DNA of 64,000 nt. It comes from Saccostrea echinata (taxonomy: Eukaryota). Numbering within the stretch: the stretch's first letter is position 1; each line of letters opens with the position of its first letter. The stretch is from contig NW_026889778.1 in the NCBI RefSeq assembly GCF_033153115.1, forward strand, positions 8,184,001-8,248,000, given 5' to 3'. Made by a program: the position numbers and the translations under genes. This document shows, in pieces, positions 42,091-62,300 of the stretch. A model generated the notes under the pieces. It worked only from the letters and a program-made list of their open reading frames with translations. It was not told the DNA's origin and made no database searches.

Positions 42091-43302
42091 CTATATAATG
42101 TTGAACTTTTTCGTGTTTCTTCTCTTACAACAAATGAGAAGCTGATTTCTGAATTTTGTATCAAAATAACCGTAAATAAAAGGGTTGATAATTTGATTTA
42201 GAAACACAAATCGTGAAAAATAAAGCCATGCAAGAGTCTGATCTTCTGAAAGGTTTATGAAATTAAAATCTTCAATTGTGTACACAAGAATCAAAATGAC
42301 AAGAGGTGGAATGTAAGAAAAGACATAAGCAAGTATTATAACGAAAAACATCCACGTCACTCTTCTCTGCACGGACGCCATTTTTGTGCTTGACTTTTTA
42401 TTTGCTGTGCTTTTACGATCACCCACGTTTGTTTCAACTCCAATTTCAGAGACATTGTTTGGTGATTTAAGAACAGTTTCTTGGACATTATTTGATGGAA
42501 TGTCCAATTTTCTCTCGCATTGTATTACTTGTGCACCTTTTGCCTCGTTTGTACTGTCTGTGAAACTATTCTCTGCTTCAGTTGTTTGCGTTGCATATGA
42601 TGATTCCACAATCCCTTCTCTGTAAGCTTCAGTCGTCTTGGATCTTTGAAGGAAGGAACGTCTAACTCGCTTCAAAACGGGAACATATAAACCTGCTGTT
42701 AAAAATAGGTTTACCAGCATGATAAGAGTCAAAAATCCAAAATACAAGGTAATTGTTAGTGACGAGTCAACAGAGAATTTACAAATCTTAATGGTCACAT
42801 TGTGGTTCATGAAAATTTCTGTTGACTCTAAAACACCAGCTGTCCATAGCAGAGGAGCAGAATAAGCCACAGAAATTCCACACACTACTCCAAAGAAAAC
42901 TCTTTTCCAAATGAGAGTCATTTTTGGACCGAAAAGTTTACAAACAAGAAGATATCTCTGAATAGAGATAACCAAAAGTATATGAGCTGACGCTCCAGGA
43001 ACACACGTCTGTAGAAATGAGAGAATTCGACAAGCAGTATCACTCGGGTAATTGAAGAAGAAGGTGTTGTCCATGATATAGAAAGGGGGACTTGTAAAAC
43101 ACGCCACAAGGTCAACGATGGCAAGTAACGGAATAAAATAACGCTCTCCTCTCTCCCTGATGCGAAGAAAGTAGAAAAATATAATGACAGAGTTCCCAGT
43201 GATGCCGATCAAAGCACAAAGAACAATGAAAATGGTGCTGCTGAGATAACTATAGAAATATCTTCGTTGTAATAGCTCCTGGTAATCTGTATCGTTATCC
43301 AT
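42091..43302 (-). CDS. Class A (rhodopsin-like) orphan GPCR, peptide-receptor-like, intronless ORF, copy 1 (403 aa)
   Basis: Seven hydrophobic segments. Motifs: TM1 GITGN, TM2 LAIVD, Cys at the top of TM3, SIQRY (DRY variant), ECL2 Cys, long ICL3, TM6 FSYIP, TM7 NPFIY, helix-8 F-R and C-terminal CC. Confidence 0.95.
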   Translation of the reverse strand: MDNDTDYQELLQRRYFYSYLSSTIFIVLCALIGITGNSVIIFFYFLRIRERGERYFIPLLAIVDLVACFTSPPFYIMDNTFFFNYPSDTACRILSFLQTCVPGASAHILLVISIQRYLLVCKLFGPKMTLIWKRVFFGVVCGISVAYSAPLLWTAGVLESTEIFMNHNVTIKICKFSVDSSLTITLYFGFLTLIMLVNLFLTAGLYVPVLKRVRRSFLQRSKTTEAYREGIVESSYATQTTEAENSFTDSTNEAKGAQVIQCERKLDIPSNNVQETVLKSPNNVSEIGVETNVGDRKSTANKKSSTKMASVQRRVTWMFFVIILAYVFSYIPPLVILILVYTIEDFNFINLSEDQTLAWLYFSRFVFLNQIINPFIYGYFDTKFRNQLLICCKRRNTKKFNII

Positions 43303-45557: not shown

Positions 45558-48500
45558 ATGACGAGTAATTCAATTTATCCGGAGTCTGTTGTGACAAACT
45601 TTCATCGGTGTGACGAAGCCCAGTCTATTGATTCACTCCAGTCTATAAATTCCATTTCTCAACAATCAGTTCGAAGCATTCGGGAGGTTGTTTTGCAGAA
45701 GGGCAGCAACTATTCCTCTTCAAGAAGAATAGCAAAACACTGGAAAATGATCTTAATTATTTTGATACCTGTATTATCTCTGATGTCTATTGCCACAAGC
45801 AGTCTTTTGAAAGCAGCAAAGGTTAAAGAAGCTTCAATGGATTCCATTCACAAGGTGGAAATTGCACATTTGTATGCAACTTTGATCAAAATGCTACAGA
45901 GAGAGAGGGGAATTTCCTCGACATATTTAAGCACCCCTGGCGACAAGAATTTACTGTTGGGTACCATGCAGAATGCAAGAAAGAGCACAGATCTAGCCTT
46001 TGCCAAAATCCCTTTAAATCATCATGCCATTTACATAAACGGGAGTCCATACGCAATTCTGGAAGTTTATGAAAAAGTTCATTTATCACGGGAGAAGATT
46101 GAAAATGGATCAGTCTCTGTTGAAGATCATCTCCATTTCTACACCAAGATCACTAATGCATTCATGAGCGTCATGTTTGATGGCGTTAATATTCCAGGGG
46201 AGTACGATTGCGTTCTAGACATTGTGGCTTTTTCATCACTTGTAAAATGGACAGATGTAATTGGTCTCTTGCGTGCTAGAATAGCATTCCAGTACGCAAC
46301 TTGTGACTTTACATCAGAGTCATTGCAGAATTATATGTTCCTGACTGGCGAAGCCATGGGTTATAAAAATATTTTCACACATTATAGTCCTGAAATAAAA
46401 TCTGCTTTTTCCACTACATATCAGAGCACAGAAGATTATCTCGAGAAAGTCAGAAGATCGGCTTGGTCTGAATCATTTCTGAACTCGTGTAAAACAAAAC
46501 CGAAAGAAGATCGTTTATCCGTAGGTTTAACATATTTTCAAAATATGACACAATTTATCGATTTTGCTTTTGAGATCCAGCAGTTCAAGTCGAAAATCTT
46601 AACGGGCAAGATGTTAGAAATACGAAAAGACGCCGAATTCCAGTTCAACGTATACCTCACTGTTCAGTTCATTATAACCATTGTAAGCATCATTTTAACA
46701 ATATGGTATATAGTATGTATCGAAAACATGACATTCAAAATTGCTAATAATGCTGTTATAATAAAATCCAAGTCCAAAGAGTTGGCTGCAGAAAAGTCAG
46801 TAACAGAAAGCCTCCAATACCAAATGTTACCGAAGAAAATCGTCATAGCGTTAAAGGAAGCACAAGCGGTTACATCTGAAAACTTTGAATACGTAACCAT
46901 TTTCATCAGCGACATTGTAAATTTTACTGAGATTGGAACAAGGAATTCAGCAAGAGGGATCATCGACTTACTTAATCATTTATATGCGTAAGTCTCAATT
47001 ATGTTTGGATTGGTGTCAATTCTAAAGAAATACCAGTTTCTCCCCAACAGTGCAGAAAATATTTCAAAGCACTCTAACACTTATATTTAGACATATTTCT
47101 CTCCTTTACTGAAACATAGGAACAGGTTTATTGCGTCACAGTGTTCTTGTCTTAAAACCTCTGATTTCTTAAAAAAAATATCCACTATCTATCAATAAAC
47201 ATGTAGGGAAATTACCTTTCTTTTGCTTTCATAAAAAATAGGGTATATTTTAGTTTAATTTTAAATTTTAATCTTTTTAAAGGTTATTTGACAAACAGAC
47301 AAAGAAGTACGAGGTCCTCAAAATAGAGACCATGGGAGACTCCTACATGGTAGCTAGTGGAGTTCCGGATCAAAATGGCATAGCACATGCTTTCCATATT
47401 TGCAAGTTTGCCCTTGACATTCATAACATTATGAAAGGATATCGTGTTCCAACAACATTTGAAAGAAAAGAATCAATTAAAATTCGTATTGGAATTCATT
47501 CAGGTATGGTATTCATTAAAAATTATATTTTTTGTTTTGATATAGTTGCTTCAAGTACAAAAGCTATTGTTTGTCATTTCTGAATTAACATGTTTCTCCT
47601 TTTGGATTATCTACAGTAACTTTCAAACAAAATGAAGCTAATACATATAGATAACTTTTTTTTAATATTTACTTTTAATTTTACATATAGGTCCCTGTAC
47701 AGCTGGAGTCCTTGGTCTGAAGATGCCAAGATATTGTTTATTCGGACAAACAGTTAACACGGCGAAAACATTAAAATCTACCGGAAGAGGTTTGTGAAAT
47801 TTTCAGTTGTTGAGAGAAGAAACTGATATGTTCCTCTTAAGATAATTTGTTTTGATGAATTAGACAAGTAGATAATGTACAATGTAGACAATAATACCTT
47901 ATTCTTGTCGGTTGCAGTCGCTTGTTTAATGATTTCATTTTATGCCTTTCTGCAGGAGGTAAAATTCATATAAGCAACAGTACGTACCAAATGATTAAAG
48001 ATTCTGGACATTTTGCAGTTTTGGAAAGAGGGAATGTCATGATCAAAGTAAGAAAAATTTAAATCCTGATAAAAATACACCTGCATTAGTTGACATGAAG
48101 TTGGTTACGTGAACAGACTCTCTTGCAATACATAAGTATGGAAGCTCAGTAAGAACACAAATCAAAATATAAATATATAAAATGTATAATATATATTATT
48201 TCAAGTTTCATTGGATATAACAGTTGGTACGTGACGTCATATCCCAATGAAACGCTAAAATGGATATCATATTTCTTACGTAACTTCCTTTTTGTTTCAA
48301 TTTTTGAGTTACAAATCATTTCAATAGCTTTGGTTTTTTTTTGCTCATCATTGAATCGAACATTACCATCGGCATTAAAAAATGCCCTTTGCTTACTGGC
48401 CAATATTTTTAAGCTGGTTATTAAGGGGCGAGTCAAATCAAAGATAATTGGCTATGAATAGAAGATCTGCAGATAAGGATAGCATGGGTGCAGTTATTAG

Positions 48501-49892
48501 TAACTGTTCTACCTACTGGAATTTGATTGCACGGTGCTTTGTCATTTTTTTTTTTTTTGAGAAACCCCTGTATAATAGTATAATACATCTTTACCTGATG
48601 TCGAGTATATGTTGTTTGCTTTTAATCAATCAGCTGCCAGGGGGACAGCGAATGAAAGAGATTAATATTAGAATAGAGCGAAGGATAGTTCCGAAAAGAT
48701 ACACCTTTCTGAGATGATTCATATTTTGAGTGGAAGAACATAAAAGAAATAAGCAATGTTGTTAATATGGTGTGTTTATATCTATCCAATAGATTTTTTA
48801 AAATGTATATATTAAAACAAAACGATGGAAATATCTTATGCTTTAATTAAGGATTGTTTTTGCCTCAAATTTTGTCTATGCAGAGTGAGCTGGTGTACAG
48901 TACAAACCAAAAGGACAAAAATTTTCTAAAACTTTGCTCAATTGTAGACCTATCGTTACATATGTAGACGAATTTTGTTGGAACAAATATGTTATGAAAT
49001 ACTTTTTGCATCAATAAAAAATACAATGCGCTTTAAGATTTTAAACAATGAGTTTAACAATATGCATTAATACTTCAATCATTAATGATGTCACATGTAA
49101 GTTGTTTGTTGTCTAGCATATGAACCGGTGCGGAAACTTTCCTTTATATGCATAAGTTCATCAATTCCCAGGATATGTATCATTATTTATCAGAATCCTT
49201 TACAAAATGTCTACAGAGTTTAAATTTTGAATTTTTCCCCATTACTTTGATCTTGTTTGTTTTTGTTTTGAACATATTTTATTGATTAAATCAAAAGAAT
49301 TGGAAACAAGTTCTAAAATAACTTACTAGTTCCTCTCCTTATATAATACAATATGTCATGCAAATTAAAGAAAAGTAATACAAATGATACAAATAAAATT
49401 TAACATATCAACTAAGAAAATCTACATGTTTCATCAATAAATTTATGAACAGCAGCAAAAATACTAATATTATCTGTAAATGCAAATTTTCATCACCACA
49501 TAGTAATAGGTTTAAATCAAAAGTGACCAATTCAAGCATGAACAAGCGATTGAAAAGAGTATTTCTAGCATTGGAATAATTTTTGCATGCATAAGAGAAA
49601 TGGTACACATCCTCGCGTTTTCCGCATGAACACGAATGACTATTAATAATATTTCGTTTACATAAATCATAGTTTAGTATACAATAATGTCTTAGCTTAG
49701 TATGAATGATATTGGTATATCTTGTTTGTCATTTTTCTTATTGAAGAAAAAAATTAATTTTTCAGTGCTATATATTCTATCTCAGTGTTTAAAACAATTT
49801 AAATAATTTTTTTTTTATTTCAGGGTAATGGGGCAATAAAGACGTACTGGCTGGACACAGCAGTTCAAATATCAAGACCTAGTTATAATTGA
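45558..49892 (+). CDS. NIT-domain (nitrate/nitrite-sensing) transmembrane guanylyl cyclase, ~636 aa
   Basis: Exons 45558-46987, 47283-47503, 47691-47789, 47956-48047 and 49824-49892 join in frame by GT-AG. Domain order: TM1 ([16 protein letters not shown]), NIT signature [10 protein letters not shown]2 ([22 protein letters not shown]), coiled coil ([14 protein letters not shown]), cyclase domain ([52 protein letters not shown]). An in-frame upstream ATG at 45189 is possible via a donor at 45195/45196 and the acceptor at 45540. Confidence 0.92.
49405..49730 (-). mobile_element. 3' fragment of a CR1/L2-type LINE ORF2, antisense in the last NIT-GC intron
   Basis: Minus strand reads IHTKLRH...LNYDL...[23 protein letters not shown]...LLLCG, the CxC...E-D-x-x-H-F-x-x-x-C C-terminus typical of these LINEs. 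Confidence 0.65.
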
Positions 49893-59389: not shown

Positions 59390-62300
59390 GTGACGTAATC
59401 TTAAAGCAATTAAATAAGGACAAGGAAGGAAAATTCCTGCAAGGAAATGTGTTTATATTTCGTGCATGTGAGTATAAAGCTATGAATAATGAAACAGTCG
59501 TTATAATACCGAAGATATTTAAACGAAATATATATATTGGGTTCTTCATTTTCAATATCTGTGTATTTATTTTGGCCTTTTGAATCCTATTTTGTGCTGG
59601 CCAACTTATCCGTTAATGCAGTACTCTAGGTACCTCTTCTAAAACAAATGGGTTCTTTTTTTTCGATCCAAGGTTATAATATTCCATTCAAACACAGGGA
59701 GAAATAATGTTTTCCAATAAAATCTTCATATGCAATACTGCCAACTGAAACAGAAACTGACAAGAAAAAAGTATTATTGTTTGAAGACCTACACAATGTG
59801 CTTATGGACAATAAAAAATTCATGGAAATGATGAGGAAGAAACTATTAAAGTATCATGACAAATAAAATTTTTAAAGCGGAAGTAAATCAGAAAACCCAG
59901 GATGACTTTGCAGAAAGAAAGTGCAAATCATAACTTTAATCAGCGCAAAAATCTAACTTGGGTTTTATTTTGTAATCTATAAGCTAGTTATTGCGTATTG
60001 ACAAATAAAATTCGTCAATTTAATTTCAGTGTCTACAATCATCAACAGAGATTGCTTTTCATATTTTTTTCCATATGTGTTGGTATTTATACTACAATAT
60101 ATCTCCATATGTGACTAGACCGACTTACAGGAAAAATGCTTGTGCAATAGTCAAAAACCGTGGGCCTGAGCCCTGGCTACAGCAAAACAAAGTTGTTAAA
60201 CTTACACTACTGGAGTAAAGGTTTGAAGGTGTTTTGAATAAGGCTCCAAAAATCGAGATTCTGTGCTGGGCGCTCGACAACCATCGTAGTATTTCATCTG
60301 TTGTTTATTAAAGATTTAACACAATGCTTAATTGAGATGTTATTTGATTTAAAGAAAAGATTTTATTTAAAGGAATTGTCATAATTCATTTCAATGGTTT
60401 ATCTTCCTGAAGATTTAAAATGCAATAAATTTAAAAAAGTCACACATTTTAATTTAAACAAAGACGTTACTTTTATTTCTTCCTTTACAATAACAAGAAC
60501 ATTTTTGTAACTTCATATGAATCTGGAGCATAAATTAACCTCAATTATTCTTCCCAAAGATAATAATGATTTAAAAAAAACAGAAAAAGAGCTAGATCTC
60601 ATAATATCAAATGCAGAATACATAACACAACAGAAAGCTTAAAATTGCAAAGTAAAAATATTCTTGAACACTTTCCAGCTTTCAATGAAACTCTATGTGA
60701 TTGGTTTCTTTTTGTAAAGAATCTCTGTATGAAAAATAATTGATTTCAAAATCCAAACAAGTAATTTTACATGAATAATATCAGTTATAAATATTTTTAT
60801 CATAAAACAGTGTGCTATTTAGGAAAATGACTACACGATATTGAATATTTATGCATACCCCCTCTTAAAGCAGATACAAATCTTATTCCTGAATTTTGTG
60901 TCAAAATAACCGTAAATAAAAGGGTTGATAATTTGATTCAAAAACACAAAACGTGCAAAATAAAGTAATGCAAGAGTCTGGGCTTGTGAAAGGTTTACGA
61001 AACTAAAATCTTCATTTGTGTACACAAGAATCAAAATGACAAGTGGTGGTATGTAAGAAAAGATATAAACAAGTATTATAACGAAAAACATCCAAGTCAC
61101 TCTTCTCTGCACAGACGCCATTTTTGTGCTTGACTTTTTATTTGCTGTGCTTTTACGATCACCCACATTTGTTTCAACCCCAATTTTAGAGATATTATTT
61201 GATGATTTACGAACAGTGTCTTGGCAATTATTTGTTGGAATATTTAATTTTCTCTCATTTAATTGTATTACTTTTGAATCTTTGACATTGTTGGTAGAGT
61301 CTACAAAACCATTCTCTGCTTCAGTTGTTTGCGTTGCACATGATGATTCCATAATCTCTTCTCTATAAGCTTCAGTTTTCCTGGATCTTTCAAGAAAGGA
61401 ACGTCTAACTCGCTTCAAAACAGGAATATATAAACCCGCTGTAATAAATATGTTTGCCAGCATAATAAGAGTCAAAAATCCAAAATACACGGTTATTGTT
61501 GGTGACGAGTCTACAGAAAATTTACATATCTTAGTGGTAACATTGTGGTCCATGAATACTTCTATTGACTCTAATACCCCAGCTGTCCAAAGCAGAGGAG
61601 CAGAGTAAGCCACAGAAATTCCACACACTACTCCAAAGAAAACTCTTTTCAAATTAAGGGTCATTTTTGGACCGAAAGGTTTACAAACAAGAAGGTATCT
61701 CTGAATAGATATAACAAGAAGTATATGAGCCGACGCTCCAGGAACACAAGTCTGTAAAAATGAGAGAATTCGACAAGCAGTATCACTCGGGTAATTGAAG
61801 AAGAAGGTATTGTCCATGATGTAGAAAGGGGGACTTGTAAAACACGCCACAAGGTCAATGATAGCAAGTAACGGAATAAAATAACGCTCTCCTCTCTCCT
61901 TGATGCGAAAAAAGTAGAAAAATATAATGACAGAGTTCCCAGTGATGCCGATCAAAGCACAAAGAACAATGAACATGGTGCTGCTGAGATAACTATTGAA
62001 ATATCTTCGTTGTAATAGCTCCTGATAATCTGTGTCGTTATACATTAGTGAAATCCAATGCTCATCGTAAGGGATTTAAGACAAATAACATATTTCTTCC
62101 TTGTGTTAAATACTTAAATGTTCTGACTTAAAGCTACAATTCATTTGTGAAAATTCAAAGTTAGGTGTGTAAGTAATTTCAATAAGTTATATATGTATTC
62201 AAGGTCAATGAAAAGGAAAAAAATTATAAAAAAAATACTGGAAACTTTATATAAGCTGATAGGAATACTGCCATTAATTGCAGAAGCATTGGTATTGAAG

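Follow-up and report, generated by a model that had tools for sequence, protein, structure and literature searches.

What can a receptor cyclase still do once its transition-state arginine has been replaced? This question is raised by a gene on the forward strand of a 64,000-nucleotide stretch of the Saccostrea echinata genome (contig NW_026889778.1, positions 8,184,001 to 8,248,000), which we refer to as the window. The gene, at positions 45558–49892 of the window, encodes a guanylyl cyclase with a NIT sensor domain (NIT-GC), and its catalytic domain carries a Thr where the Arg is expected. Our favoured answer, to which we would assign a probability of roughly 0.45, is that the protein would make little cyclic GMP (cGMP) as a homodimer. 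By analogy with the alpha subunit of soluble guanylyl cyclase (sGC), it may instead pair with a sister NIT cyclase whose site is complete, and provide the metal-binding half of the resulting heterodimer. The sequence alone would fit such a heterodimer half, a pseudo-cyclase or a slow enzyme.

The class III active site comprises eight positions: the alpha-type subunit contributes two Asp and an Arg, and the beta-type subunit contributes Glu, Cys, Asn, Arg and Lys (PMC3591389). Seven of these positions are canonical in the window protein. The first metal-binding Asp, D452 (46911–46913), was located by alignment to GC-A and to the family. Coding exon 2 (47283–47503) carries the guanine-specifying E492 (47326–47328), the second metal Asp, D496 (47338–47340), and the phosphate Arg, R545 (47485–47487). 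C566 and N573 lie in exon 3 (47691–47789), and exon 4 (47956–48047) terminates with K614. The eighth position, the transition-state Arg, is Thr577; its codon is ACA (47768–47770), as opposed to AGA in the three nearest paralogues. An earlier interpretation made from the letters alone, hereafter the sequence-only reading, had listed the retained metal Asp pair, guanine Glu and Cys and catalytic Asn together with the Arg-to-Thr change, and our alignments recovered every one of these.

The resulting pattern is of the alpha type: positions 1, 3 and 4, occupied by the two metal Asp and the phosphate Arg, are retained, and position 7, the beta-side Arg, is lost. As a half-site it is only partial: the metal side is intact and the Arg is gone, but the Asn has been kept. 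The neighbouring helix residues are off the family consensus as well (D570Q, S576K, M578L and E579K, in addition to R577T). The KGKG loop had been reported to read KGNG, which is correct as far as the letters go; however, only the second Lys is lost (K616N in exon 5, 49824–49892, which also holds the stop codon), and it is the retained first Lys, K614, that aligns with the active-site position. K579 aligns with E974 of GC-A, a Glu that has been changed in the whole divergent clade described below. Replacement of E974 by Ala is reported to make GC-A hyperactive.

If each site of a NIT-GC dimer is built across two subunits, one contributing the two Asp and one Arg and the other the Glu, Cys, Asn, Arg and Lys, the window protein could furnish a complete metal side while lacking the transition-state Arg. 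Paired with itself, it would form two Arg-less sites; paired with a full-site sister, one complete and one crippled site. The best candidate partner would be P0004, a sister gene in the same genome with the same five-exon structure and canonical residues at all eight positions. Two known systems resemble such an arrangement. Like the window protein, sGC alpha and the C1 domain of adenylyl cyclase retain both metal Asp along with the phosphate Arg and have no partner-side Arg. Unlike them, the window protein is membrane-bound, has a NIT instead of an H-NOX/PAS sensor part, retains the Asn and the loop Lys, and is the product of a young duplicate with no dedicated beta-type partner among 16 NIT loci. 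The Caenorhabditis elegans pair ODR-1/DAF-11 is an obligate heterodimeric receptor guanylyl cyclase in which each subunit supplies part of the active site (PMC5225109). That pair differs in having a kinase-homology domain, no NIT domain and two incomplete partners, whereas the partner proposed for the window protein is complete and the pairing hypothetical.

The Thr is shared with a second species. The S. cucullata orthologue P0031, 74% identical to the window protein, has Thr at 577, the KGNG loop and an open frame, so an assembly error or a private allele was rejected as the source of Thr577. In a tree of 15 proteins, the window gene groups with P0031/P0001 (support 99/97) within a divergent clade (100/100) with a stem of 0.35, and the window/P0031 pairing has 25 shared derived residues versus 4–8 for cross pairings. 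The full-site proteins P0004/P0021, P0008 of M. gigas and P0047 of C. virginica belong to the same orthogroup as the window gene (100/100). The position of the divergent clade relative to the single canonical genes of M. gigas, M. angulata and C. virginica was unsettled in the 15-protein tree; FastTree joined the clade with P0004 (92). In three protein searches, the divergent clade was confined to Saccostrea among the matches listed. Judged by these comparisons, the window gene is a member of a fast-evolving, genus-level duplicate clade beside a full-site sister.

Within S. echinata, two close paralogues with the same five-exon layout (81% and 70% DNA identity) are located on contig C28; the window gene is on C29. 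One is P0004, and the other, P0002, is divergent and keeps the catalytic Asn and Arg. The S. cucullata counterpart set consists of P0021 (canonical), P0003 (Asn replaced by Ser) and the Thr-bearing P0001/P0031. The Asn/Arg helix has therefore been altered twice independently, once by the R-to-T change that the window gene shares with P0031 and once by the N-to-S change of P0003, while none of the four divergent Saccostrea proteins has lost D452, D496 or R545. It is because of these two independent changes beside an untouched metal side, and by analogy with sGC alpha and ODR-1/DAF-11, that we favour the heterodimer.

P0002 (locus L074), the nearest paralogue, keeps the catalytic Arg and has Ser at its second NIT Arg; its S. 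cucullata counterpart, P0003, shows the reverse, with the NIT Arg kept and the Asn lost. A complementary pairing of the window gene with P0002 is thus not conserved, and we rejected it.

The orthologue also bears on the idea that the enzyme is fully active, with Lys576 standing in for the missing Arg. In the predicted model, Lys576 sits three residues past N573 on the same helix, and it predates the Arg loss, being present in P0002 and P0003 too. Such compensation by the adjacent Lys, which the sequence-only reading had raised, is not conserved: P0031 has Ile at 576 next to its Thr at 577, which leaves no basic residue at either position. We regard a full rescue by Lys576 as highly improbable.

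How unusual is the loss of the Arg in this family? The genome contains NIT matches at 16 or more loci. The Arg is absent in 8/16 (replaced by Lys in five, by Ile in two that appear to be identical copies, and by Thr in the window gene), and eight loci keep both Asn and Arg, so that full-site partner candidates exist. For a wider sample, a family profile returned 150 representatives, 115 of them with a NIT match; the 93 with positions 1–7 aligned were used and the rest dropped. This sample is biased toward the profile and possibly includes mis-modelled sequences. The site is complete in 57 of the 93; 16 keep the metal side and have lost Asn or Arg, 12 have lost the metal side only, and 8 have lost both. 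The transition-state position is occupied by Arg in 73, Lys in 10, Ser in 4, Phe in 4, Tyr in 1 and Glu in 1, so that the Arg is absent in 20/93, and Thr does not occur. On a FastTree phylogeny of 105 rows (the 93 representatives and 12 named sequences, with residues 566–581 excluded), the alpha-like state requires 14 changes, at least 8 of which are forced by well-supported branches. As far as these alignments go, the alpha-like state is a recurrent one in the family, and what sets the window gene and P0031 apart is the Thr itself. With such losses frequent in the family and this one restricted to a single pair of young paralogues, the change is less singular than the sequence-only reading implied.

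We compared the window gene with its relatives for signs of constraint. The dN/dS values come from pairwise and three-gene fits, and S. cucullata was compared at the protein level only; with four genes and free ratios, saturation of the outgroup (dS about 34) made the codon model unstable. Against P0002, the pairwise dS was 0.61 and dN/dS 0.24 overall and 0.18 in the cyclase. Two further tests, both at the protein level, span the time since the Arg was lost. In the cyclase, the window protein and P0031 differ at 8/88 family-conserved and 31/83 variable sites (Fisher p 1e-5), and in the NIT domain at 1/22 conserved and 59/202 variable sites (p 0.011). Simulated neutral evolution down to 74% identity introduced 10.7 stops on average, and 0/1500 runs stayed free of them, although for the cyclase exons taken by themselves, where about 6% of neutral runs remain open, this carries little weight. 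Over residues 352–613, identity is 76% within the Thr-bearing pair and 88.5% within the full-site pair, the former evolving about twice as fast. By these measures, the constraint on the window gene is real and looser than in the full-site pair. Orthologues that keep the Arg beside a neutrally evolving window copy would have refuted the sequence-only reading; the Thr of P0031 and the avoidance of conserved sites speak against that outcome. For the window gene's own branch, dN/dS is 0.35 and poorly determined, and a value of 1.0 is not rejected (p 0.16).

These results speak to the view that the gene is a redundant duplicate in slow decay, its cyclase domain having no present function. The doubled rate and the own-branch dN/dS would fit such a history, as would P0001, a second S. 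cucullata model nearly identical to P0031 that stops at the exon 2 donor and may be a broken copy or mis-modelled. However, the frames are open in two species after 26% divergence, and the cyclase substitutions avoid conserved sites; only a very recent loss would escape such tests. Neutral decay since the S. echinata/S. cucullata split appears unlikely because P0031 shares the Thr in an open frame at 74% identity, and we consider slow decay in general very unlikely.

The structure of the gene agrees with its being intact. No stop, frameshift or broken splice site was found in it: all donors are GT, all acceptors are AG, and the 1911 nt of coding sequence yield 636 aa with a single terminal stop. 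Splice sites, Pfam and hydropathy agree with the earlier description of an uninterrupted five-exon gene for a protein with a transmembrane segment (TM), NIT, a second TM, a coiled coil and a cyclase, and without a kinase-homology domain. Exon 1 (45558–46987, residues 1–476), an open frame with a GT donor and a start Met shared by P0001/P0031, encodes the N-terminal tail and everything that follows, including the first part of the cyclase domain. TM1 (about residues 62–82, 45741–45803) is predicted from hydropathy above 2 in 19-residue windows. The NIT domain (residues 109–335, 45882–46562) matches Pfam PF08376 with an E-value of 2.6e-12 and 48.1 bits (cut-off 24.9). TM2 (about residues 365–388, 46650–46721) reaches a hydropathy of 2.4 and is an unbroken helix in the predicted model. 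The putative coiled coil or signalling helix (46722–46847), likewise a helix in the model, has a weak HNOBA match (residues 394–430, E 0.08). None of the five exons matched a kinase family in Pfam, and cyclase pieces were matched in exons 1–4. The NIT-GC layout, with NIT between two predicted TMs and a C-terminal cyclase, was supported by hydropathy, by Pfam exon by exon and by P0031 as a whole.

Residues 352–636 are identical to P0009, a public 285-aa S. echinata model with the same four splice junctions (including that of exon 5), which confirms the junctions. P0009 matches Guanylate_cyc at E 1.4e-57, so that both suggested Pfam assignments hold. It begins at Met352 and thereby omits the NIT domain, though the genomic frame is open from 45558. 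A predicted model of residues 352–636, which draws on the family alignment, has a mean pLDDT (predicted local distance difference test) of 93.8 and the GC-A cyclase domain (9bcv, a class III fold) as its top match (E 1.1e-25). Among 120 matches listed, no transcript-derived relative of the cyclase part exceeded 66% identity except P0009 itself. P0009 and P0021, both public models, share an internal start Met immediately ahead of TM2, which leaves out the NIT; counts of NIT-GCs derived from annotation are probably too low.

Is the sensor still able to sense? A profile of oyster NIT domains from 11 of the 16 loci matches NasR (4akk, E 4.3e-8) with both Arg motifs aligned, and the two conserved arginines of the predicted anion pocket, R117 (45906–45908) and R239 (46272–46274), are kept in the window protein. 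With both in place, the domain would still sense nitrate, nitrite or nitric oxide (NO) outside the cell, and the ligand signal would pass through TM2 and the coiled coil to the cyclase. The Glu that precedes the second Arg belongs to the predicted pocket of NasR (E175; PMC7496416). In the window protein, this position is Leu, giving the GLLRA that the sequence-only reading had reported. The letters are right, but GLLRA is the normal state of the subfamily: P0004, P0021, P0008 and P0047 have it too, with a complete FGDTVNTASRMES helix and KGKG loop. The Leu is therefore a subfamily trait, and we rejected GLLRA as a sign of decay on account of the catalytically normal orthologues P0004, P0008 and P0047.

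A number of observations count against the heterodimer. Only a single position of eight has been lost, and both species still have N573 and K614, which are dispensable for a pure alpha-type subunit; a slow homodimer would account for this just as well. Both metal Asp residues are kept in 16/16 NIT loci, none of which is a dedicated beta-type partner. Since the window gene and its sisters are on different contigs, pairing has no support from linkage, and the public model of the gene lacks the NIT part. To these must be added the shortened P0001, the doubled rate, the own-branch dN/dS and the weak stop-codon argument in the cyclase exons. Furthermore, a bacterial cyclase is known that is active although its Asn position is non-canonical (PMC4215837), so that loss of a consensus residue need not mean inactivity. 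The sequence-only inference of a half-site subunit or a pseudo-cyclase is partly supported: the alpha-type residue pattern speaks for it, the loss of just one position weakens it, GLLRA and KGNG add little, and the sequence would fit either branch.

The main rival is a slow homodimer: the protein would pair with itself, bind GTP and make cGMP at a much reduced rate, acting as a low-gain sensor. In favour of it, replacing the transition-state Arg in mammalian adenylyl cyclase reportedly lowers the rate by tens of fold, not to zero; the changed Glu at the E974 position of GC-A throughout the divergent clade points the same way. Both species also retain seven of the eight positions, among them E492, C566, N573 and K614 of the beta side. 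Retention of the Glu and Cys does not discriminate, however, since most alpha-like family members have them, and the flanking positions 570, 576, 578 and 579 are off consensus, with Ile at 576 in P0031. Yan 1997, by its title, calls the Asn and Arg essential. All in all, we think a slow homodimer rather unlikely, if still worth serious attention.

Alternatively, the protein may be a decoy that senses or binds its ligand but yields no cGMP in whatever dimer it joins, and that damps its sister cyclases by occupying them. The long stem of the divergent clade (0.35) points in this direction, with its changes at conserved interface and helix sites: nine fixed shifts among 125 canonical-invariant sites and, in addition, the signalling-helix change L420Q. 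To judge from the title of one report, an sGC heterodimer without activity has been described. Against a decoy, both metal Asp and R545 have been kept in 4/4 divergent proteins, while loss of both sides, as seen in 8/93 representatives, does occur in the family. We consider a decoy unlikely.

The heterodimer half that we prefer would be a variant of a known receptor type. Animal NIT-GCs such as Platynereis NIT-GC1/2 (Moroz 2020, PMC7400543; bioRxiv 10.1101/2023.08.02.551600) share with the window protein the NIT domain between two TMs, the C-terminal cyclase and both conserved NIT arginines, and they too have many mollusc copies; in placozoan members, membrane segments flank the NIT on either side (PMC7400543). 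When expressed alone in cells, Platynereis NIT-GC1 made cGMP with an NO donor, a response for which its NIT domain was needed (bioRxiv 10.1101/2023.08.02.551600); the window protein, with Thr577, is predicted not to do so well. A literature search with little coverage of subscription journals found no publication on incomplete NIT cyclases or on a NIT-domain guanylate cyclase in oyster, and the available portions of the two animal NIT-GC papers (PMC7400543; bioRxiv 10.1101/2023.08.02.551600) do not mention catalytically incomplete members.

Invertebrates can sense NO and nitrite without haem through NIT cyclases, a route described only recently; we found one member of the family assayed in the literature. 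If half-sites pair with full-site members, gene counts would overstate the number of independent sensors, and expression assays of single genes would miss many members. Taken singly, the window gene is a duplicate at the level of the genus that differs by one substitution, of a sort frequent in its family, and cyclases with half-sites are familiar from other systems; together with its full-site sister, it would offer a clean natural pair for testing half-site pairing. Tentatively, and with more doubt than for the window gene itself, one may picture animal NIT cyclases as mix-and-match heterodimers, in which half-site subunits keeping sensor and metal side arose repeatedly (at least eight changes), and the window gene as a recent recruit by a single base that tunes nitrogen-oxide sensing with full-site sisters.

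Other members of the family show further combinations. A separate NIT-GC subfamily has an intact metal side but Ser for the Asn and Lys for the Arg, its motif being TVSVASK or TVSLASK; it comprises L080, L084, L085 and L086 (G000, C30 at 23.16 Mb, C16 at 20.02 Mb and C8 at 5.12–5.13 Mb) and L078. Similar motifs occur in a supported clade of four representatives (P0069, P0072, P0106, P0192), near which is a clade without the first metal Asp (P0068, P0087, P0126). This subfamily and the clade lacking the first Asp may represent an alpha/beta-type pair of greater age, which would suit a test better than the window gene does. L082 (G000, C16 at 2.445 Mb) and L083 (C54 at 33.888 Mb) have identical translated pieces in which the beta-side Glu, Cys, Asn and Arg are missing (KVNAT, FGETLDIAHIMKAS); they are a recent duplicate or an assembly duplicate. 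L079, L081, L087, L088 and L089 keep Asn and Arg; in these five, the Gly that precedes the second metal Asp is replaced by Asn, and the Glu of RMES by Lys in four and Met in one.

Elsewhere in the window, the minus strand carries, at 28453–29600 and 33854–34264, a Cys/Asp/Gly-rich repeat reading frame and two related downstream exons with a terminal PPSY motif, none of which gave a Pfam match at E 0.01. Two single-exon genes for rhodopsin-family receptors, 90% identical to each other, are also on the minus strand (42094–43299 and 60852–62048); no copy of the neighbouring receptor gene was found near the C28 sisters. These receptors form a local array that continues past the window, and the cyclase gene lies between two of them.

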